From a virus (lineage: Duplodnaviria; Heunggongvirae; Uroviricota; Caudoviricetes): a stretch of DNA of 8,554 bases. Where the stretch lies: the IMG/VR virus record IMGVR_UViG_2609459863_000010, positions 1 through 8,554 of that record. The stretch is one strand, 5' to 3'. This document shows positions 1 through 8,554 of the stretch, piece after piece. The position numbers and the translations under genes are program-made. The notes below the pieces were generated by a model that was not told where the DNA came from, did no database searches, and was given only the letters and a program-made list of their open reading frames with translations. Positions within the stretch are counted from its first letter, which is position 1. Each line of letters opens with the position of its first letter.

Positions 1-97
1 GAACATCACCAGTCCTGCAAATCCGCGCGAGACGCAGCCGCATTTCTTCGAATCCCGATTCCCTGAGCTGTTAAAGCTGCTCGATACCGTTCATTGA
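1..97 (+). CDS. 3' end of an upstream phage ORF (partial; frame unresolved)
   Basis: Frame 2 is open from the window edge to TGA 95-97 (...FPELLKLLDTVH*), with its stop overlapping the GAGG ribosome-binding site of the next gene. Frame 3 is also open, to TAA 72-74, so the frame cannot be fixed from this fragment. Confidence 0.3.
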   Translation, partial: NITSPANPRETQPHFFESRFPELLKLLDTVH

Positions 98-98
98 G

Positions 99-1094
99 GT
101 GACCGTGAGAGCACTACTGACCCCTGAAATTGCCCCGCGTATGGGGATCGTATTGTTCAGACCAGGTTCAGAGCTGATGCCCCTGTTTATGCAGGGGCGT
201 GTCCTGCTGGAGCCTGAGCCGGAGCGTTATTCATCTTTCGCCAGTGGTGCCGTTCCGGCGGCATCACAACCGCTGGCGGATGATCCTGCCGTTCGGGCCG
301 TGTTCCGCAATGAGGCAGTGATCCGTCGTGCTGGTGGCGTGGAATGTCTTGAAAGCTGGTTACTTCGTGAAAAAGGCTGCCAGTGGCCTCATTCCGACTG
401 GCACAGCGAGAACATGACCACAATGCGACACGCTCCGGGTGCAATCCGTCTGTGCTGGCACTGCGATAATCAGCTGCGCGATCAGTTCACGGAACGGCTG
501 GAATCAATGGCAACGGATAACTGTGCCCGCTGGGTGTTGTCTGTTGTGCGTCGGGATCTCGGTTTTGATGACAGTCACGTTGTGACAATGCCGGAACTGT
601 GCTGGTGGCTGATTCGTAATGATCTGGCGGATGCCTTACCGGAAAGTGCAGCCCGTAAGGCCCTGAGATTACCGAAGCCTGTTGTGCCGTCTGTCACCCG
701 GGAAAGTGACCTTGTGCCTTCGGTTACTGCCACCAGCATCATCCAGGATAAGGCGAAAAAGGTGCTGGCGCTGAAAGTGGATCCGGAGTCGCCGGAGTCT
801 TTTATGTTACGCCCAAAACGTCGTCGCTGGGTTAATGAAAAGTACACGCGCTGGGTTAAGACGCATCCGTGTGCATGTTGTGGTAAGCCAGCCGACGATC
901 CTCATCACCTGATTGGTCATGGTCAGGGTGGAATGGGTACAAAAGCGCATGACCTTTTTGTGTTGCCTTTGTGCAGAAAACACCATGACGAACTGCATGC
1001 GGATACCGTGGCATTTGAAGAGAAGTATGGTTCCCAACTGGAGCTGATATTTCGTTTTATCGATCGTGCGCTGGCAATTGGCGTGCTGGCCTGA
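99..1094 (+). CDS. DUF968-family phage protein (YdfU-like) with a C-terminal Cys/His cluster, possibly an HNH-like zinc-binding nuclease fold
   Basis: 331-codon ORF; GTG at 99 or, more plausibly, GTG at 105 with GAGG at 96-99. C-terminal motif HPCACCGKP...DPHHLIGHG...PLCRKHHDELH matches my recollection of DUF968 proteins found just upstream of Q in lambdoid prophages. The stop at 1092-1094 lies just before the RBS of the next gene. Confidence 0.8.
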   Translation: MTVRALLTPEIAPRMGIVLFRPGSELMPLFMQGRVLLEPEPERYSSFASGAVPAASQPLADDPAVRAVFRNEAVIRRAGGVECLESWLLREKGCQWPHSDWHSENMTTMRHAPGAIRLCWHCDNQLRDQFTERLESMATDNCARWVLSVVRRDLGFDDSHVVTMPELCWWLIRNDLADALPESAARKALRLPKPVVPSVTRESDLVPSVTATSIIQDKAKKVLALKVDPESPESFMLRPKRRRWVNEKYTRWVKTHPCACCGKPADDPHHLIGHGQGGMGTKAHDLFVLPLCRKHHDELHADTVAFEEKYGSQLELIFRFIDRALAIGVLA

Positions 1095-1111
1095 TTTTGT
1101 GGAGAAAGTTG

Positions 1112-1474
1112 ATGCGTGATATTCAAATGGTTCTGGATCGTTGGGGAGCATGGGCGGCGAGTGATAGTTCAGGAGTAGACTATTCTCCTATAGCTGCTGG
1201 GTTTAAAGGGCTTCTTCCCTATACAAGCAAAACACGTCAGGCTTGTTCAGATAGTGATGCATTAATTATTGAAGGTTGTCTTGCTCTTCTTAAAAAGCGA
1301 AAACCGTACGAGCATTCTTTGATTGTGGCCCATTACCTGTATGGCATCTCGAAAAGAAAGCTTGCAAGAGCTCGCAAAAAAGATGAGAAATTGATACGTA
1401 TAGAGATACAGATGGCTGAAGGGTTTATTGATGGATGCCTTTCAATGCTGGATGTTAAACTTGAAATGGAGTAG
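1112..1474 (+). CDS. Q: Late-gene antitermination protein Q (QuuD / Phage_antitermQ type)
   Basis: N-terminus MRDIQMVLDRWGAWAA... closely matches the recalled QuuD-type Q N-terminus (MRDIQMVLERWGAWAA...). ATG at 1112 is preceded by GGAGAAAG at 1101-1108. The ORF track starts at TTG 1097, which I consider less likely. Stop TAG 1472-1474. Confidence 0.88.
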   Translation: MRDIQMVLDRWGAWAASDSSGVDYSPIAAGFKGLLPYTSKTRQACSDSDALIIEGCLALLKKRKPYEHSLIVAHYLYGISKRKLARARKKDEKLIRIEIQMAEGFIDGCLSMLDVKLEME

Positions 1475-1499
1475 AAAAAAGGGCATTTCTGCCCTTTTT
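1475..1499. terminator. Bidirectional intrinsic terminator shared by Q (+) and the convergent membrane-protein gene (-)
   Basis: AAAAAA, then GGGCA-TTTC-TGCCC hairpin, then TTTTT. The A-run/hairpin/T-run reads as a terminator on both strands. The stop of the minus-strand gene (1498-1500) overlaps the T-run. Confidence 0.7.
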
Positions 1500-1941
1500 A
1501 AATGTGGGGGAGTATCCAGTTTACTTTTCTCCATGTAAAGGCAAAAGTTATTACTGAAATGATAAGAAGAGATAAAGATTCGATAATTAAAATAAATTCT
1601 ATTTTTTCTCCATGTAACAATGTCTTTTCATTGGCAAACATTGCTATCAAAGCAATAACGCATGCCGTAATTAAAGATGCACCTGCGGTTAATAGATTTA
1701 CAATAATAACTTGAAGTATGTTGTTGTTTTTTAATGCTTTTATTATTCCATTTGAGTTTTCGCTAGCAGCACTAAAAATTGATATTGTGGCTAAAATAAA
1801 ACCAAATAAAATACCGGATACAGTTGAAATAACCCCGGAGGCTGTAAGTATGTCAGCATGCCCCATCTGAGGGATATACCTCAGTAGGAACAAGGTGCAA
1901 AAAACACTTACAATCAGGTTTCTTAAGTATTTCAATAACAT
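1498..1941 (-). CDS. RexB-like small integral membrane protein (about 4 predicted TM helices); putative membrane effector of an abortive-infection pair
   Basis: 147 aa, strongly hydrophobic with about four helical segments. Same size class as lambda RexB (144 aa). The LFLLRYIPQMG segment resembles the recalled lambda RexB LLFRHYIPG. ATG at 1941 lies 3 nt after the upstream gene's stop (1945-1947), indicating translational coupling. AT-rich. Confidence 0.72.
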   Translation of the reverse strand: MLLKYLRNLIVSVFCTLFLLRYIPQMGHADILTASGVISTVSGILFGFILATISIFSAASENSNGIIKALKNNNILQVIIVNLLTAGASLITACVIALIAMFANEKTLLHGEKIEFILIIESLSLLIISVITFAFTWRKVNWILPHI

Positions 1942-1944
1942 ATC

Positions 1945-2886
1945 CTATACCTTCTTTTTGCTGATATCGTATTGCTTAAGGTATTCATTGTTATCAATTT
2001 TAGCAGAAATCATGGCTTGCAGAACATCACTATCAGTGCCATAACCATTAACGGTATATATGTTTTTTTCTGAAATGAGTACCTGATCAAGAAGACTTTG
2101 TTCAACGGTATTTTTGGGCTGTGTTACTGCCGCTTTTTTTACAATTCCCGGCATTTTTTCAAGGAGTTCTTTAATACCATCCTTAACGAGATCTGATAAA
2201 TAACCTTTGACTTTTACTCTCCCTGATGCACGTCCCCTTAGATTTAACTTGAGACGTGTTCCACCCAGCCCTACCATCATATTTACCAGTTCCTTAGAAA
2301 ATGAACTATTTAGCTGGTAATTTGTTGCATCAAAGTTCCTGGGAGCAGCCAGGACAATATCACAACTTCTCAAAGTACTTCCTGTTTCAAGTAGCTCTTT
2401 GACGCTCTCTTTTTTCCAGATGGCTTGGAATGAAAAGTTATTTCCAGGATTACCACTCTGGCTGTAAAGCAGATAAGCTAAATCCGATTCTTTCGGCCCA
2501 AGATGATTTTGAGTTAATATTAAAATATCACTATCGTAATAATATAAAAAATAGGTTCTTTCGACTATGTATTTTTTATCATCTAGTGGTATGTTGTGCT
2601 CATTCCAGTGTTCATCACCAATATAAGGAAGGAGATACTCTTCTCGTGAGCATGACATGTAGCCGAAGAAATATTTAGCTTTTGTATCTTTATTTATAAA
2701 AGCTATTTTTAACTTTTTATTTCTATAGATGGTATCAAAATGATTATTCGTAACGGTTACGCAAGTATTATACAGATTTTCAATTGCTTGCTTAGCAACT
2801 GAATGGCTGCGGATAGTCCCAGAACTGCTGGTGTAAAAACCAATTTTAAGTTTTTTTTGTTTCTTTGATTGCGCAATAGTAGCCAT
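1945..2886 (-). CDS. RexA-like cytoplasmic protein; putative sensor/activator partner of the downstream membrane protein
   Basis: 313 aa, no TM segments. Local resemblance to recalled lambda RexA: KIGFYTSSS vs KNGFYATYRS near the N-terminus, GPKESDLAYLL vs GPTTSDLTDFL mid-protein, CDIVLAAPRNF vs LDIVIKPKFK. AAGG lies 7 nt upstream of ATG 2886 on the minus strand. AT-rich relative to flanks. Confidence 0.75.
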   Translation of the reverse strand: MATIAQSKKQKKLKIGFYTSSSGTIRSHSVAKQAIENLYNTCVTVTNNHFDTIYRNKKLKIAFINKDTKAKYFFGYMSCSREEYLLPYIGDEHWNEHNIPLDDKKYIVERTYFLYYYDSDILILTQNHLGPKESDLAYLLYSQSGNPGNNFSFQAIWKKESVKELLETGSTLRSCDIVLAAPRNFDATNYQLNSSFSKELVNMMVGLGGTRLKLNLRGRASGRVKVKGYLSDLVKDGIKELLEKMPGIVKKAAVTQPKNTVEQSLLDQVLISEKNIYTVNGYGTDSDVLQAMISAKIDNNEYLKQYDISKKKV

Positions 2887-3019
2887 GTTAAACCTTAGTA
2901 TACTAATAATTTCTTATGGATCTTATTTTTTATATGGCTTTAATTTAGCAAAAAAAATTACCGCGGTCCGCAAATTTTATCTTAATCTGTTAAGAGTGGT
3001 TACTTCGCCACACAACTTA

Positions 3020-3043
3020 AACCCGCCACTGAGCGGGTTTTTT
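3020..3043 (+). terminator. Intrinsic terminator on the + strand in the divergent intergenic region (candidate tR'-like site)
   Basis: AACCCGC-CACTGA-GCGGGTT hairpin followed by TTTTTT. The T-run is on the + strand only, so it terminates a rightward transcript that would start in 2890-3010. Confidence 0.55.
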
Positions 3044-3141
3044 GTACCTGTAAACTTGGTGCAGTACAGTAAACACGCTGGTGGTCGTGAATACTGACTT
3101 TTTATCTTGCTGGCTTTTTAGACAAGAGTTATTGGTATGTC

Positions 3142-3363
3142 ATGTTAACCAGAAGGGAAAAAGACATGCTAAAACAGCAAGATATGACCGAAACCGCCAG
3201 AGTGGTGTTTAATGAATTGAGCGTCACCGAACCGGCGACTGTCGGGGAAATTGCGCAGAATACTTACCTTTCACGTGAACGCTGCCAGTTAATACTGACT
3301 CAGCTTGTTATGGCGGGTCTGGCAGATTATCAGTTCGGTTGTTACAGACGCCTTCAGCCCTGA
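3142..3363 (+). CDS. Small winged-helix/HTH DNA-binding protein (FaeA/PapI-like fold suspected)
   Basis: 73-codon ORF. The more likely start is ATG 3166, preceded by AGAAGGGAAA (65 aa). The pattern ...TVGEIAQNTYLSRERCQLILTQLVMAGLADY... is typical of a recognition helix plus wing. Its stop overlaps a terminator hairpin. Confidence 0.55.
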   Translation: MLTRREKDMLKQQDMTETARVVFNELSVTEPATVGEIAQNTYLSRERCQLILTQLVMAGLADYQFGCYRRLQP

Positions 3364-3377
3364 AGGCTTTTTTATTT
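3350..3377 (+). terminator. Intrinsic terminator overlapping the stop codon of the small HTH gene
   Basis: GCCTTCA-GCCC-TGAAGGC, a perfect 7-bp stem, followed by TTTTTTATTT. Confidence 0.7.
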
Positions 3378-3513
3378 GTGGTAATGGGCGGCTGGTGGGT
3401 GTTAGCGGCACCTGCCAGCCATCTGCTCATGCGTTGGGGTCACAAGCAAACCTCAGGCCCATCTGCTTTGCGCAAAAGCAGAATGAGCCTATCAGAGACA
3501 GGCTTAATGATCC

Positions 3514-4572
3514 ATGCTTAATACTGTAAAAATATCCAGTTGTGAGTTAATCAACGCCGACTGCCTGGAATTTATCCGGTCGTTACCCGAAAATTCTGTT
3601 GACCTGATAGTCACGGACCCGCCGTACTTTAAAGTGAAGCCCGAGGGCTGGGATAACCAGTGGAAGGGCGACGATGATTACCTGAAGTGGCTGGACCAGT
3701 GTCTGGCGCAGTTCTGGCGGGTGCTGAAACCTGCCGGAAGTCTTTACCTGTTCTGTGGTCATCGCCTGGCATCTGATATCGAAATCATGATGCGTGAACG
3801 CTTCAGTGTGCTGAACCATATTATCTGGGCGAAGCCGTCCGGACGCTGGAACGGATGCAACAAGGAAAGCCTGCGGGCGTATTTCCCCGCCACAGAGCGC
3901 ATTCTGTTCGCGGAACATTATCAGGGGCCGTATCGTCCGAAAGATGCCGGGTATGAGGCGAAGGGCAGGGCACTGAAACAGCATGTGATGGCCCCGCTGA
4001 TTGCTTACTTTCGTGATGCGCGCGCTGCCCTGGGGATAACGGCAAAACAGATTGCAGATGCCACAGGAAAGAAAAACATGGTGCCGCACTGGTTCAGTGC
4101 CAGTCAGTGGCAGCTACCGAACGAAAGCGATTATCTGAAATTACAGTCGCTGTTTGCCCGGGTGGCAGAAGAGAAACATCAGCGCGGGGAACTGGAAAAG
4201 CCACACCACCAGCTGGTCAGCACATACAGTGAGCTGAACCGGCAGTATATGGAACTGCTGAGTGAATATAAAAATTTGCGGCGGTATTTCGGTGTGACGG
4301 TGCAGGTGCCGTACACCGATGTGTGGACGTATAAACCGGTGCAGTACTATCCAGGGAAACATCCGTGCGAAAAACCGGCAGAAATGCTGCAGCAGATAAT
4401 CAGCGCAAGTAGTCGTCCTGGTGATCTGGTTGCGGATTTCTTCATGGGGTCGGGTTCGACAGTCAAAGCCGCGATGGCGCTGGGGCGTCGTGCTACAGGC
4501 GTTGAGCTGGAGACTGAACGTTTTGAGCAGACGGTCAGGGAAGTTCAGGATTTAGCCAGTCAGAACGGATGA
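3514..4572 (+). CDS. Beta-class DNA methyltransferase (N6-adenine or N4-cytosine; N6_N4_Mtase family), apparently orphan
   Basis: 352 aa. Motif IV DPPY (IVTDPPYF) is near the N-terminus and motif I FxGxG (DFFMGSGST) near the C-terminus, the circularly permuted order that defines beta-class amino-methyltransferases. About 200 aa between them would form the target-recognition region. No restriction endonuclease gene is adjacent. Confidence 0.88.
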   Translation: MLNTVKISSCELINADCLEFIRSLPENSVDLIVTDPPYFKVKPEGWDNQWKGDDDYLKWLDQCLAQFWRVLKPAGSLYLFCGHRLASDIEIMMRERFSVLNHIIWAKPSGRWNGCNKESLRAYFPATERILFAEHYQGPYRPKDAGYEAKGRALKQHVMAPLIAYFRDARAALGITAKQIADATGKKNMVPHWFSASQWQLPNESDYLKLQSLFARVAEEKHQRGELEKPHHQLVSTYSELNRQYMELLSEYKNLRRYFGVTVQVPYTDVWTYKPVQYYPGKHPCEKPAEMLQQIISASSRPGDLVADFFMGSGSTVKAAMALGRRATGVELETERFEQTVREVQDLASQNG

Positions 4573-4612
4573 TATTGCAGGATTAGTTACGTACCGTTAT
4601 TATCCTGCGCCC

Positions 4613-4688
4613 GGCCCTTTAGCTCAGTGGTGAGAGCGAGCGACTCATAATCGCCAGGTCGCTGGTTCAAATCCAGCAAGGGCCACCA
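4613..4688 (+). tRNA. tRNA-Ile2 (anticodon CAU, lysidine-type, reads AUA); would be scored as tRNA-Met by anticodon alone
   Basis: 76 nt. Acceptor GGCCCTT/AAGGGCC, D-arm GCTC...GAGC, anticodon loop CTCATAA with CAT at 4646-4648, T-arm GCTGG-TTCAAAT-CCAGC, discriminator A, encoded CCA. Resembles E. coli ileX/ileY and the ileZ of Stx phages. Confidence 0.9.
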
Positions 4689-4695
4689 TCACATA

Positions 4696-4772
4696 CCGCC
4701 ATTAGCTCATCAGGAAAGAGCGCCAGCCTTCGAAGCTGGTTGCGCGGGGTTCGAGTCCTCGATGGCGGTCCA
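4696..4772 (+). tRNA. tRNA-Arg (anticodon UCG)
   Basis: 77 nt. Acceptor CCGCCAT/ATGGCGG, anticodon stem CCAGC/GCTGG with loop CTTCGAA (TCG at positions 34-36), T-loop TTCGAGT, encoded CCA. Confidence 0.88.
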
Positions 4773-4785
4773 TTATCGGTATTCT

Positions 4786-4862
4786 GCGTTGTTAGCTCAG
4801 CCGGACAGAGCAATTGCCTTCTAAGTAATCGGTCACTGGTTCGAATCCAGTACAACGCGCCA
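4786..4862 (+). tRNA. tRNA-Arg (anticodon UCU, reads AGA/AGG)
   Basis: 77 nt. Acceptor GCGTTGT/ACAACGC, anticodon loop CTTCTAA (TCT at 34-36), T-arm GGTTCGAATCC, discriminator G, encoded CCA. Confidence 0.88.
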
Positions 4863-4875
4863 CACTTATTTTCCT

Positions 4876-4902
4876 GGCTCGCTTCGGCGGGCCTTTTAAT
4901 TT
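4876..4902 (+). terminator. Intrinsic terminator closing the tRNA cluster
   Basis: GGCTCGC-TTCG-GCGGGCC, a 7-bp stem with one G-U pair and a UUCG tetraloop, followed by TTTTAATTT. Confidence 0.7.
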
Positions 4903-5168
4903 GCTGAAAAAGAAAACATCAGATGGTTAGTCGGGTATCAGTTATCTGGTGAAATTTTTAAATACCTCACAATTCAGGAAGGTGATTATTGTTTTTCTGG
5001 TGGGGAATTTGTTAAAAATCACTCCGCATGATGAATCCCCCTAAGCGGTGGGGCGACTGGCAAGGCTCCATTACGATGGTCACAATCCGCAGATTTAGTT
5101 TGCCAGGCTGAATCTACCGGGAGGCACCCGGCATCATGCATAATGTGGAAAATTGGAAATGTATTCAG

Positions 5169-5200
5169 GCCTCTACGAATTTTAGTAGAGGCTTTTTTTT
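5169..5200 (+). terminator. Intrinsic terminator of module A
   Basis: GCCTCTAC-GAATTTTA-GTAGAGGC, a perfect 8-bp stem, followed by TTTTTTTT. Confidence 0.75.
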
Positions 5201-5204
5201 GAGT

Positions 5205-5231
5205 AAAAAAAGCCCGTCTATGGCAGCGGGC
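5205..5231 (-). terminator. Minus-strand intrinsic terminator, back-to-back with the module A terminator
   Basis: On the minus strand: GCCCG-CTGCCATAGA-CGGGC followed by TTTTTTT (+ strand AAAAAAAGCCCG...CGGGC). Confidence 0.55.
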
Positions 5232-5582
5232 AAGTATGCATGAGAATACATTTTTTATTATTTGCCTGAAAATAGTACCCTGAGGTTATTGTTGTTTTCA
5301 ACAGGCTGATTTGTGTTCTGATCGGGGATGTGACAAGGAACATACGTTCTTATGTGAAAATGTTAAATTCTTCACATTTCAGTGAGTTGAGTGTTGATTT
5401 CGTTTTATCTTTTTTGTTAAAAAAGTATTGCATGGTGAATCCCCCTGTGCGGTGGGACGACTGGTGACAACAATTCATCATCCGTGATGACCCAGAAGAG
5501 ATCGCGGGTTCAGTGGCACCGGGCTGAACTCACCGGGAGGCACCCGGCACCATGTTCATGGTGATACAGAAATGCGGCTTCA

Positions 5583-5606
5583 GCCCCTCTCCGGAGGGGC
5601 TTTCTT
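5583..5606 (+). terminator. Intrinsic terminator of module B
   Basis: GCCCCTC-TCCG-GAGGGGC, a perfect 7-bp GC-rich stem, followed by TTTCTT. Confidence 0.65.
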
Positions 5607-5612
5607 ATGGAC

Positions 5613-5640
5613 AAAAAAGCCCGCGCTGGGAGACGCGGGC
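5613..5640 (-). terminator. Minus-strand intrinsic terminator, back-to-back with the module B terminator
   Basis: On the minus strand: GCCCGCG-TCTCCCAG-CGCGGGC followed by TTTTTT. Confidence 0.55.
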
Positions 5641-5707
5641 GGCAAGGAATAAACAATAAAACGTGAAGTAATATTTCAGCTGGCGAATAATACCCCATAG
5701 TAATCAC

Positions 5708-5731
5708 TCTGCGCAACTGCGCGGCCTTTTT
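5708..5731 (+). terminator. Intrinsic terminator-like hairpin upstream of the esterase gene
   Basis: CTGCGC-AACT-GCGCGG, a 6-bp stem with one G-U pair, then CC and TTTTT. Confidence 0.45.
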
Positions 5732-5833
5732 CGTATTGCGGGCTGTAGTCTCCCTTCTGCCATTGTCCTGTAACTTCCGGACTTCAGCTCGCTCCTTATC
5801 TGACTCACAACATTATCCCGACCGGGAGGATTC

Positions 5834-7813
5834 ATGACATTTAAACACTACGATGTGGTCAGGGCGGCGTCGCCGTCAGACCTTGCGGAGCGACTGACAC
5901 AAAAACTGAAGGAGGGGTGGCAGCCATTTGGCAGCCCTGTCGCCATCACGCCTTATACCCTGATGCAGGCCATTGCGGCGGAAGGTGATGTCACCACACC
6001 TGTGGTGGTGAAGCCGTCGGATGGAGAAGGCACAGTTATCAGCACCACCAGCGAACCGGAGTATTACTTTGTTGTTGTTCTGGCGGGGCAGTCAAACTCA
6101 ATGTCTTTTGGGGAAGGGCTGCCGCTGCCGGAGACATATGACCGTCCGGACCCGCGTATTAAACAGCTGGCGCGTCGCAGTACGGTGACGCCGGGTGGTG
6201 CCGCCTGTAAATATAACGACATCATTCCGGCAGACCACTGTCTGCATGATGTGCAGGATATGAGTAACCTGAATCATCCTCATGCAGACCTGAGTAAGGG
6301 ACAGTACGGTTGTGTGGGGCATGCTCTGCATGTTGCCAAAAAGCTGCTGCCGTTTATGCCTGCGAATGCGGGTATCCTTCTTGTTCCATGTGGCCGTGGC
6401 GATTCGGGATTTACTGCGGGGGCCGAGGGGGCGTTTAACGAAGCGTCGGGAGCGACCGCAGGCTCGTCCCTGTGGGGGGCGGATAAACCGCTGTATCATG
6501 ACCTGGTCAGCAGAACCCGTGCGGCCCTGAAGAAAAATCCGAAGAACGTGCTGTTATCAGTGATCTGGATGCAGGGAGAAAAAGATGTCAGTTCGGGGAG
6601 ACATGCAGAACACAATGCGCTTTTCCTTGCCATGGTAAATCAGTTCCGTACGGAACTGGCAGATGTGGCAGAGCAGTGTACTGGCGGGACAACGGCCAGC
6701 GTCCCGTGGATTTGCGGTGATACCACGTACTACTGGAAGGAAAGGTATGCAGCGCCGTATGAGGCGGTTTACGGTGGGTATAAAGGCAAAGCTGCGCAGA
6801 ATATTCACTTTGTGCCGTTGATGACGGATGAGCATGGTGTGAATGTGCCGACAAACGAGCCGTCAGAAGATCCGGACATTATCCCGGCGGGATACTATGG
6901 CGCTGCGTCACGCACTGCCAGTAACTGGACGTCAGCCAATCGTAAAACGCACTTCAGTTCATGGGCGCGAAGAGGCCTTGTTTCAGACCGTCTGGCAGGT
7001 GCCATTTTGCAGTACGCCGGGCGGACATTATCGTTCCTTACCGGGCAGAGCGCACCGCTGTCGGGTGGTACAACTCCTGTCAGTCCGGGGACACCGGATG
7101 TTGAGAAACCGCAGGATGGCGGTGTTGCTGGTACTGGTCATGATGAGGCCGTGAGCAGTACCAGGACGGTGGCTGAATATGATGCGAACAGTGGAAATGG
7201 TGTATGGACAGAGCAGCAGTGGGGGGCTGCCGGTGGCAAAGGCACTGTGACTGATGACGGTGGACGGAAAGCGCTGCGACTGGAAAAACAGCCCGGTAAA
7301 CTGACGTCCTGGAAAATGTTCCGTACTGTTGCAGTGGAGGAGGCAAAAAATCTTCTCAGCAAGGGGGGTGAAATTGCCGTACGGTTCAAAATTCCGGATG
7401 GAAGCGAACTGGTGAACGGACAGTTTGTCTTTGGTCTCTACTGGCCGGTGTCGCAGTGGGCGTCAGGCGCGGCAGCAAACAGTATGCTGGCATCATTCTT
7501 CCTTCAGACGGATGCATCAAATCTGAATCTTATGCACCACAAGGGCACGTCGAATGCACAACTGGGCACATTTGGTGCGTTTGACCATAACTGGCATACG
7601 GTTGTTTTCCGCTTTGCGGGAAATAACAGCGAAAGAGTCGTTCCGGTGATTGATGGTGCAGAGCAGACGGCGTTTGACCTTGTGATGTGGACAAATGATG
7701 GCTTTACAGCAGATACGCTGACGCTGACAGATATCACGGGGGCAAAAGCGACGTATCCTGTACTGCTTGATACGGTCACTGTCAAAGTGAAAGAAAGCGA
7801 AGCAGCGGCATAA
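5834..7813 (+). CDS. nanS: Prophage sialate O-acetylesterase (NanS-p type): N-terminal DUF1737, SASA/SGNH-like esterase core, C-terminal extension
   Basis: 659 aa. N-terminus MTFKHYDVVRAASPSDLAE... matches the recalled NanS-p/DUF1737 start. The catalytic-serine block VVLAGQSNSMS is the GQSN motif of SASA esterases. RBS GGGAGGA at 5824-5830. In Stx phages this gene sits immediately downstream of stxB. Confidence 0.9.
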   Translation: MTFKHYDVVRAASPSDLAERLTQKLKEGWQPFGSPVAITPYTLMQAIAAEGDVTTPVVVKPSDGEGTVISTTSEPEYYFVVVLAGQSNSMSFGEGLPLPETYDRPDPRIKQLARRSTVTPGGAACKYNDIIPADHCLHDVQDMSNLNHPHADLSKGQYGCVGHALHVAKKLLPFMPANAGILLVPCGRGDSGFTAGAEGAFNEASGATAGSSLWGADKPLYHDLVSRTRAALKKNPKNVLLSVIWMQGEKDVSSGRHAEHNALFLAMVNQFRTELADVAEQCTGGTTASVPWICGDTTYYWKERYAAPYEAVYGGYKGKAAQNIHFVPLMTDEHGVNVPTNEPSEDPDIIPAGYYGAASRTASNWTSANRKTHFSSWARRGLVSDRLAGAILQYAGRTLSFLTGQSAPLSGGTTPVSPGTPDVEKPQDGGVAGTGHDEAVSSTRTVAEYDANSGNGVWTEQQWGAAGGKGTVTDDGGRKALRLEKQPGKLTSWKMFRTVAVEEAKNLLSKGGEIAVRFKIPDGSELVNGQFVFGLYWPVSQWASGAAANSMLASFFLQTDASNLNLMHHKGTSNAQLGTFGAFDHNWHTVVFRFAGNNSERVVPVIDGAEQTAFDLVMWTNDGFTADTLTLTDITGAKATYPVLLDTVTVKVKESEAAA

Positions 7814-7827
7814 CAGGCGAAAAAAGA

Positions 7828-7870
7828 GCCAGCGCCGGAGGGAAAACATATAAAGGAGCCGGGCGCTGGC
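7828..7870 (+). repeat. Inverted repeat (11/12-bp arms, 20-nt spacer) immediately after the esterase stop
   Basis: GCCAGCGCCGG ... CCGGGCGCTGGC with spacer AGGGAAAACATATAAAGGAG. No T-run follows, so it is not a canonical intrinsic terminator. Confidence 0.4.
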
Positions 7871-7960
7871 CAAACAAGGCAGCAAATATTGCTTAACTCT
7901 TATGTCCGTAGTTTTGTACCTTTTTTTACTGGATGTTTCAAATAATAACGGTAAGAAATT

Positions 7961-8155
7961 ATGACGTTAGTTCATCAGTTCATGCTGTACTTCTGTACGG
8001 CGGTATGCGTGCTGTATCTTCTTTCGGGTGGGTACAGGGCAGTGCGCGATTTCTGGCGCAGGCAGATTGATAAAAGGGCCGCAGAGAAAATCAGCGCCAG
8101 TCAGTCAGCCGGAGCAAAAACAGAAGCCCCACTCATTCCGGAACAACCTTCTTAA
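7961..8155 (+). CDS. Small hypothetical membrane protein (single predicted TM segment)
   Basis: 64 aa with N-terminal hydrophobic stretch LVHQFMLYFCTAVCVLYLLSGGY and a basic/charged tail. Weak RBS. Confidence 0.45.
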   Translation: MTLVHQFMLYFCTAVCVLYLLSGGYRAVRDFWRRQIDKRAAEKISASQSAGAKTEAPLIPEQPS

Positions 8156-8180
8156 TAACCCCTTTCAACGAGAAAATCCT

Positions 8181-8471
8181 ATGTCAGAAATAAAATCGCT
8201 GGTCACTGCTGAGGCAGTGAAGGAAGTCCTGCGCTCTGAAGAAGTCCGGAGCGCACTGAAACAGCAACTTCGGCAGAACCTTGAGGCGCGTCTTGATGCA
8301 GAAGTGGATGCCATTCTGGATGAATTGCTTGGTGCACAGCCGGAACCATCCCCGGAACTGCTTCCGGAACCACAGGCGGAAGATGTCACCACGGAAAATG
8401 GTGATATTCAGCCGGAGCCACCGGTGACGGATATGACAGACACACAACCCGAACCGGGCACAATGCTGTAA
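8181..8471 (+). CDS. Hypothetical acidic protein with a Pro/Glu-rich (PEP-repeat) C-terminal tail
   Basis: The ORF track gives 8028-8471, but the 5' part overlaps the preceding ORF. ATG 8181 (MSEIKSLVTAE...) is in frame and follows that ORF's stop. A strong terminator lies immediately downstream. Confidence 0.55.
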   Translation: MSEIKSLVTAEAVKEVLRSEEVRSALKQQLRQNLEARLDAEVDAILDELLGAQPEPSPELLPEPQAEDVTTENGDIQPEPPVTDMTDTQPEPGTML

Positions 8472-8481
8472 CGGCGGGGCA

Positions 8482-8519
8482 GGGCCATCAGTAAAGAGCT
8501 GGTGGCCCTTTTGTTGTTG
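8482..8519 (+). terminator. Intrinsic terminator
   Basis: GGGCCATCAG-TAAAGAG-CTGGTGGCCC, a 10-bp stem with one G-U pair, followed by TTTTGTTGTTG. Confidence 0.75.
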
Positions 8520-8554
8520 TGAGCTTCCGAGTACGGGAGACGGGGTATGTACCA

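Follow-up and report, generated by a model that had tools for sequence, protein, structure and literature searches.

The locus described here raises the question of whether a relative of the RexAB system of phage lambda can reside outside the immunity region, as an antisense cassette behind Q, the gene of the late antiterminator. No abortive-infection system has been known for longer than RexAB, whose trigger and mode of action are still unresolved. Five Rex-like systems have been described, according to a 2026 paper (PMC12894663). We analyzed 8,554 nucleotides (nt) of the IMG/VR virus record IMGVR_UViG_2609459863_000010 (positions 1 to 8,554; hereafter the window), which belong to a lambdoid prophage of E. 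coli and cover its late-regulatory region. Directly downstream of Q, two minus-strand genes encode proteins of 313 and 147 amino acids (aa), which we call A and B. The original prediction, read from the sequence of this stretch, described them as a divergent RexA/RexB-like abortive-infection pair, with a base composition suggestive of horizontal acquisition, and as a candidate for an undescribed or relocated defense system. Our analysis indicates that homology of the pair to RexAB is highly probable. We further consider it probable that A and B form a very divergent, relocated RexAB-type module, whose most likely role is abortive-infection defense.

Predicted fold of A and its relation to RexA

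Standard searches placed A (1945-2886, minus strand) in the Pfam family DUF6731 (PF20505; 41.4 bits, expect value (E) 1.7e-10, residues 34-260), above the gathering score of 27 bits, and a RefSeq protein identical to A is labeled as a DUF6731 family protein. A also matched phrog_7651, and B matched phrog_8552 only, both being PHROG families without known function. No NCBIfam model was matched by either protein, and at E up to 1 neither A nor B hit any of the defense-system models of PADLOC-DB v2.

AlphaFold2 (AF2) modeled A from 36 homologues with a predicted local distance difference test (pLDDT) value of 80 and a predicted template modeling score (pTM) of 0.70. A Foldseek search of the PDB with this model returned lambda RexA (8TWQ) as the first match (E 3.3e-8, probability 1.00), followed by E. 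coli RdgC, a structural relative reported for RexA (PMC11077077). Along the chain, the model starts with an N-terminal β-sheet domain, continues with an inserted middle α/β domain, and ends with a strand and helices at the C terminus. This succession of secondary structure agrees with the published topology of RexA, in which a split globular domain carries an inserted dimerization domain (PMC11077077). Whole-chain TM-scores were low (0.35-0.39), which a different hinge angle might explain, and the identity in structural alignments was about 9-14%. The model thus gives the soluble protein A the RexA fold; by analogy, A would form dimers and bind DNA. The alignment around lambda R219/K221 is too uncertain to place DNA-binding residues on A.

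We then compared the families at the level of sequence profiles. At E up to 0.001, an exhaustive profile search with the A family yielded 230 clusters (50% identity), 10 of them with E below 1e-30. With 169 family members (effective number of sequences (Neff) 6.6), hhalign aligned A 15-307 with RexA 3-270 collinearly over 253 columns (E 0.0027, probability 11%; E 6.5e-5 and 36% in global mode). The score of 27.7 was compared with those of 200 composition-preserving decoys, in which the columns of the RexA alignment had been shuffled within short blocks; none scored as well (mean 14, standard deviation 2.4, maximum 23). The strongest block paired A 112-140, YFLYYYDSDILILTQNHLGPKESDLAYLL, with RexA 92-119, and the same block was hinted at by BLASTP. 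BLASTP against the lambda proteins was not significant for either gene (A-RexA, E 0.25; B-RexB, E 0.012). The short RexA- and RexB-like stretches noted in the original prediction thus lacked significance in pairwise comparison, but the same stretches were picked, in register, by profile-profile alignment. For both proteins, the profile signal emerged only after distant family members had been added.

B as a probable remote relative of RexB

B (1498-1941, minus strand) contains four hydrophobic segments (residues 1-20, 31-61, 74-105, and 112-137), and its AF2 model is a helical bundle (pLDDT 84), in line with the transmembrane (TM) topology anticipated for this protein. The segments and a basic central loop occupy positions parallel to those in lambda RexB. 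The layout as a whole is RexB-like: 147 aa (about 144 aa in lambda RexB), four hydrophobic segments, and a start codon just past the upstream gene. The TAG stop of A and the ATG of B are separated by 3 nt, with a purine-rich AAGAAGG just upstream. The original description of two minus-strand genes of these sizes was accurate. Translational coupling between A and B is plausible from this arrangement.

To compare B with RexB, we used a 14-sequence RexB alignment as the hhalign target and enlarged the B side with partner proteins from distant DUF6731 loci. The probability increased with the size of the B family, from 1% (11 sequences) to 46% (20 sequences) and 72.5% (22 sequences; E 3.3e-5). The four most distant partners alone reached 82.7% against RexB (E 9.6e-6, 119 of ~145 columns). 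Scores lay between 30.7 and 38.5 (35.1-38.5 for the 22-sequence family and the distant subfamily), compared with at most 26 for decoys overall and at most 24 for decoys of the latter two, whose scores were reached by none of 100 decoys. An HxD motif before TM2 and a basic loop after TM2 are common to the B family and RexB. In the distant partners, the loop motif RRLxxK(M/I)(K/R)EYG is close to RRLAKIREYGY of lambda RexB. A search of BFVD with the B model returned only uncharacterized phage proteins (best E 0.015). These sequence comparisons support a relationship to RexB for B, a small inner-membrane protein with four helices.

A and B as a conserved unit

Nearly every DUF6731 gene that could be placed in a locus is followed by a B-family or B-sized gene, 0-30 nt away or overlapping, that encodes about 143-152 aa; the partner in Pseudomonas phage AUS531phi is annotated as 118 aa. 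Pairs were found in E. coli (three allele types), Pectobacterium, Yersinia (two), Citrobacter, Xenorhabdus (two), Vibrio (two contexts), AUS531phi, and three metagenomic lineages. On one Pectobacterium contig (L042), no partner was called. The translated enterobacterial and Vibrio partners align with B as one family, and three distant partners match the B-family hidden Markov model (HMM), each with three or four hydrophobic segments. Identity across genera is 44-62% for A and 48-54% for B, with many invariant residues.

The distant pairs occur in several genomic settings. In AUS531phi, a cI-like S24 repressor gene, a DUF6731 gene, and a membrane protein gene follow each other on one strand, which is the cI-rexA-rexB arrangement of lambda. 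The A-type protein of this phage belongs to DUF6731 (Pfam E 8.6e-13) and aligns with the A family at 97.8% in hhalign; its partner aligns with the B family at 93% probability. Another distant pair is part of a lysogeny module, where it is flanked by a gene that faintly matches Phage_CI_repr and by an integrase gene. A further pair of a DUF6731 and a four-TM protein directly adjoins AbiEi/AbiEii (L056 647-3759); with a Rep_1 replication gene on the same contig, the setting looks like a small defense cluster on a plasmid. In the 14.6-kilobase (kb) tectivirus-like Vibrio prophage 10N.286.54.F4_PE001 (Vinavirales; L052 181-2896), the cargo behind the integrase gene begins with an A/B pair of 351 and 150 aa, indicating that the module also travels on non-tailed temperate phages.

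Next, we examined how frequent the pair is. A profile scan of genome contigs with the A family returned only 3 loci, and the census was therefore conducted by exact-protein look-ups. The window allele was present in 25 of 5,426 complete E. coli genomes, and two other allele types, with A 44% and 62% identical, in 73 and 18; if there is no overlap, the three together account for about 2%. Each allele type is at least 99% uniform. Among 50,697 phage records, 6 encode an A homologue. From 1400 to 3200, the window is 99.6% identical to phage cdtI (AB285204), in which A and B correspond to orf53 and orf54, both annotated as "hypothetical". Annotation of the family is uneven elsewhere as well. In E. 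coli O139:H1 W13-16 (L003 4099-4467), PGAP starts B at Met26, giving 122 aa and losing TM1, although the DNA is identical to that of the window. In vB_EcoS-733R5 and vB_EcoS-716R3 (ON470608, ON470622), an 87%-identical A homologue is labeled "portal (connector) protein".

A variable cargo slot between Q and a conserved element

Every sampled enterobacterial A/B pair is convergent with a PF06530 Q gene and is located between the Q stop and a conserved post-Q element. In the window, the left border of this slot is Q itself (1097-1474, plus strand, 125 aa; Pfam Phage_antitermQ PF06530, E 5e-52). Between the stops of Q and B lies an intrinsic terminator that acts in both directions by its structure (1476-1499, both strands), A6-GGGCA-UUUC-UGCCC-U5. 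It has a U-run on each strand and folds stably on both (-13.0 kcal/mol on plus and -13.4 on minus; z about -3.2 and -3.3), confirming that Q and the pair share one terminator. The base composition also sets the pair apart. Sliding windows over 1500-3000 gave a GC content of 0.30-0.40, compared with 0.45-0.58 to the left and 0.45-0.56 to the right, and the individual genes have 0.35 (A), 0.32 (B), and 0.42 (Q), so the pair is indeed AT-richer than both flanks. All A/B alleles are AT-rich (30-41% GC).

Aligning the region beyond the A start of seven enterobacterial A/B loci and of mEp390 revealed the right border, a conserved non-coding element at 2950-3010 (plus strand). Its core (2963-3000) is GCGGTCCGCAA-N-TAnnnTGTTAAGAGTGGT, the pattern of the element is GCGGTCCGCAA...TAAGAGTGGT, and it contains the invariant palindrome GCGGTCCGC and TGTTAAGAGTGGT. 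Wherever the pattern matched in loci of this Q subtype, there was one copy per locus, always on the late-gene side and whatever the cargo (L005 3819-3856, L050 3409-3446, and others). It is followed by a hairpin with a U6 run (3019-3045, plus strand; -13.7 kcal/mol, z -4.2), a putative tR'-like terminator; of the seven other loci in the alignment, five show a similar hairpin at this position. Given its position directly after Q, the invariant T-A-n-n-n-T, and the downstream terminator, the element is probably the late promoter PR' with its Q-utilization (qut) region. It may include the Q-binding or pause site of this Q subtype.

We then compared the content of the slot in related phages. In the Stx2d phage Stx2_112808, whose Q is 73% identical, the slot is empty: the element begins 12 base pairs (bp) past the Q stop and is followed by the same small open reading frame (ORF), methylase, and tRNAs as in the window. 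The slot of mEp390 (Q 86% identical; L005 2928-3746) holds a bidirectional terminator and a single antisense gene that matches the PADLOC TIR-TM model (1.6e-57). SfIV (L006 3862-5284) carries an AT-rich antisense 356-aa protein together with a 108-aa membrane protein, and mEp460_4F5 (L007 3905-4831) an AT-rich antisense protein of 308 aa that faintly resembles the DUF6731 profile (11 bits). The cargo of these three slots has a GC content of 30-37%. In all, five related phages were examined; AT-rich antisense genes occupy the slot of four, one of them the TIR-TM defense gene, and one slot is empty. Because the slot is empty or otherwise filled in relatives, the A/B pair can be regarded as a ~1.47-kb cassette (about 1475-2949) inserted between Q and the probable late promoter. 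The comparison of related prophages suggested along with the original prediction thus showed that the locus varies, with A/B, TIR-TM, other antisense genes, or nothing in the slot. Together with the low counts of the three alleles, this argues for a relocated, accessory, and horizontally acquired module.

The identity of Q is uncoupled from that of A and B; for example, an 88%-identical Q accompanies A and B that are 44% and 50% identical. Cassette exchange between conserved flanks, or rapid diversification, would explain this pattern. We rejected co-evolution of the pair with Q on the same grounds.

The pair had also been credited with its own upstream AT-rich promoter region. Only the AT-rich leader of about 63 bp (2887-2949, minus strand), which varies in length and sequence between loci and is presumed to contain the promoter, fits this description. 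The remainder (2950-3045) consists of the shared element and the hairpin, and since it is common to relatives with other cargo or none, it is probably a property of the late operon rather than of the pair. The sole reason for assuming a pair-specific promoter is that no phage transcript of that strand is known. Candidates picked manually (e.g., TATACT, located 13 nt ahead of the ATG of A) were unconvincing, and we do not claim them.

Neighboring genes in the window

Upstream of Q, the window encodes a DUF968 protein (99-1094). Beyond the hairpin, a small winged-helix ORF (3142-3363) is followed by an N6-adenine DNA methyltransferase gene (3514-4572, plus strand) that matches the PADLOC MTase_II model (E 1.6e-165). 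A methylase after the small winged-helix ORF is conserved in many lambdoid phages, no restriction-enzyme gene is evident nearby, and the enzyme is probably an orphan, self-protective methylase. The tRNA cluster at 4613-4862 (plus strand) comprises tRNA-Met(CAT), tRNA-Arg(TCG), and tRNA-Arg(TCT); its order and the flanking methylase are as in the Stx2d phage, but the window contains no stx genes. Between the tRNA cluster and an esterase gene with DUF1737, SASA, and DUF6645 domains (5834-7813) are two full-length copies of the small RNA STnc100 (Rfam RF02076; 4996-5204 and 5400-5612, plus strand; 122 and 140 bits). In Stx2_112808, stx2A starts ~90 bp past the same tRNA cluster. The window ends with the start of the lysis region.

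Discussion

In this study, we linked an antisense gene pair behind Q to RexAB. The observations behind this link are the gene structure and composition, the fold of A, the topology of B, the remote homology, the conservation of the pair, and the cassette-like slot. The proposed RexA/RexB-like identity is supported by RexA as the top PDB match, by enlarged profiles that score above all decoys, by the recurrent pairing, and by the cI-adjacent pair of AUS531phi. We treat A/B as a relocated variant of the RexAB kind and not as a member of the Pfam RexA and RexB families, because it fails the sequence-family tests and lacks the linkage to cI and PRM.

Several results weigh against assigning A/B to a RexAB-type defense. 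Neither protein matched the Pfam models of RexA (PF15969) and RexB (PF15968) or the corresponding PADLOC models at E up to 1, so this part of the profile check suggested along with the original prediction turned out negative. As positive controls, lambda RexA (1e-97 in Pfam, 9e-110 in PADLOC) and RexB (8.5e-92 and 8.6e-61) were recognized strongly, indicating that the failure of A and B reflects real divergence and not a gap in the libraries. An HMM-to-sequence search of the PDB with the A family profile missed RexA, as did phmmer with A. The profile link between A and RexA is formally weak (probability 11-36%) and falls to 0.7% with a narrow 36-sequence profile; small alignments of B likewise gave about 1% against RexB. 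RexB was not among the top 50 BFVD matches of the B model, although its presence in BFVD was not checked, and the B-RexB link consequently comes from sequence profiles and topology. The promoter scan detected no consensus sigma-70 promoter upstream of A. No paper within the literature library searched mentions DUF6731. In addition, function does not follow from homology alone, because lambda RexA has a second, non-defense role in which it acts on the CI/Cro switch without RexB (PMC11077077). In the Butters system, the two proteins have exchanged roles (PMC12894663).

Homology with lambda RexAB and with RexABpp of P. putida suggests a mechanism, provided that A/B acts like these relatives. In the model published for lambda, Sbash, CarolAnn, and RexABpp, infection triggers the RexA-like protein, which activates the RexB-like membrane protein and leads to membrane damage, cell arrest, and abortion of the infection (PMC11077077; PMC12894663). 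By their functional definition, RexAB-type systems need both genes for the exclusion of particular phages, such as T4 rII, and the activated B protein damages or depolarizes the membrane. The A/B pair opposes phage transcription and is insulated from Q by the bidirectional terminator, so that expression from its own promoter in the lysogen is possible. There, A, the presumed sensor and activator, would sense a product of the superinfecting phage, possibly a DNA-protein intermediate. Activated A would then activate B, the presumed effector, and the membrane would be compromised. The damage would stop growth or energy supply, abort the infection, and thereby protect the lysogen population. Dimerization and DNA binding of A, its interaction with B, membrane depolarization, expression in the lysogen, and a defense phenotype would all be expected by analogy with the characterized systems.

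An alternative is that the pair serves the development of its own prophage, with a RexA-like DNA binder tuning Q/PR' or the commitment between lysogeny and lysis, or with leftward transcription interfering with Q by antisense or convergent effects. The A/B operon does converge on Q, alleles with only 44-62% identity hold exactly the same position between Q and the element in every sampled enterobacterial locus, and lambda RexA acts on a bistable switch without RexB (PMC11077077). We nevertheless regard such a role as unlikely, since the family also occurs away from Q (next to cI in AUS531phi, to the integrase in the Vibrio element, and to AbiE on the plasmid-like contig), the slot of phages with closely related Q is empty or holds the unrelated TIR-TM gene, a strong bidirectional terminator insulates Q, and the identities of Q and A/B are uncoupled. 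The fixed position is more simply explained by conserved flanks that promote cassette exchange. There is a slim chance that the fixed position reflects more than a handy site for recombination and that the RexA-like protein is functionally wired to the late switch, for example by binding the post-Q element with its palindrome GCGGTCCGC or by sensing Q-modified transcription complexes. If so, it would either act as a checkpoint for the late expression of its own prophage or sense the late promoters of superinfecting lambdoid phages, and it would be the late-switch counterpart of the action of lambda RexA at the CI/Cro switch.

The pair could also be a different membrane-acting set that involves no sensing of infection. 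It might prevent DNA entry as a superinfection-exclusion system, or it might form a toxin-antitoxin-like addiction module in which B is the toxin and A regulates it. B is a small multi-pass membrane protein, other small membrane proteins occur in the same slot (e.g., the 108-aa protein of SfIV), and the Rex-like pair of mycobacteriophage Butters acts by sequestration and not by activation (PMC12894663). Such a set is improbable in our view, because A and B are conserved to the same degree, because A has the RexA fold, and because the homologous systems of lambda, Sbash, CarolAnn, and RexABpp need both partners for abortive defense. No PADLOC model was matched by either protein, with no separate search made for Sie-type exclusion or toxin-antitoxin families. 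Long ORFs arise readily in AT-rich DNA, and most records call both proteins hypothetical, which would suit chance reading frames or decaying remnants in AT-rich filler. The conservation of the pair across genera refutes this explanation, both proteins have confident AF2 models, and the Pfam family of A is curated and comprises 230 clusters at 50% identity; the chance that the frames are spurious is negligible. We therefore favor the relocated RexAB-type defense module.

This assignment introduces no new principle; it connects the classic Rex system with DUF6731 and with a membrane family that has no name yet. Linking DUF6731 and its four-TM partner to RexA and RexB would provide a functional hypothesis for a family of at least 230 clusters (50% identity; E up to 0.001). 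Such pairs escape current defense annotation, as neither protein matched any PADLOC model. With many natural variants available, their comparison could reveal what RexA-like sensors recognize. Furthermore, the Q-adjacent cargo slot is now defined and could be mined for more prophage defense genes.

Comparison with known systems

A/B differs from lambda RexAB in sequence, gene context, and size. The curated HMMs PF15969 and PF15968 recognize the lambda proteins but not A and B, the structural identity between A and RexA is about 9-14%, and A is about 35 aa longer. The lambda rex operon adjoins cI and is co-transcribed with it from PRM, whereas A/B is not next to cI, cannot be transcribed from PRM, and forms an antisense cassette with its own terminator between Q and the putative PR'. 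RdgC is a recombination-associated DNA-binding protein encoded by a chromosomal housekeeping gene without a membrane partner. The RdgC structure (2OWL) scores much lower against A than RexA does.

RexAB-type systems recognizable only by structure have already been validated, as exemplified by RexABpp of P. putida (Rosendahl et al. 2026, PMC12894663). The RexABpp genes (PP_5643/PP_5644) of prophage P1 occur right downstream of a Cro/CI-type repressor gene, unlike A/B (PMC12894663). RexApp was linked to RexA by HHpred with a probability of 98% (PMC12894663) and, compared by description only, appears closer to RexA than A does. The ten cluster representatives closest to the AUS531phi protein consisted only of Halomonas and metagenome-assembled genome (MAG) entries, with no P. 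putida RexApp among them. The actinobacteriophage pairs (Sbash gp30/31, CarolAnn gp44/43, and Butters gp30/31) resemble A/B in combining a soluble RexA-like and a membrane RexB-like protein in temperate phages. Their RexA homologues dimerize and bind DNA non-specifically (PMC11077077), and the pairs confer heterotypic defense. Compared by description only, they differ in their Gram-positive or mycobacterial hosts and in their location in or near the immunity region.

As cargo, A/B resembles the morons found near Q, such as stx in Stx phages and the toxin cassettes of APSE, which share a foreign composition and variability between related phages. The stx genes, however, are located downstream of the post-Q element, the methylase, and the tRNA genes, on the late-gene strand, whereas A/B lies upstream of the element, on the opposite strand and behind a terminator.

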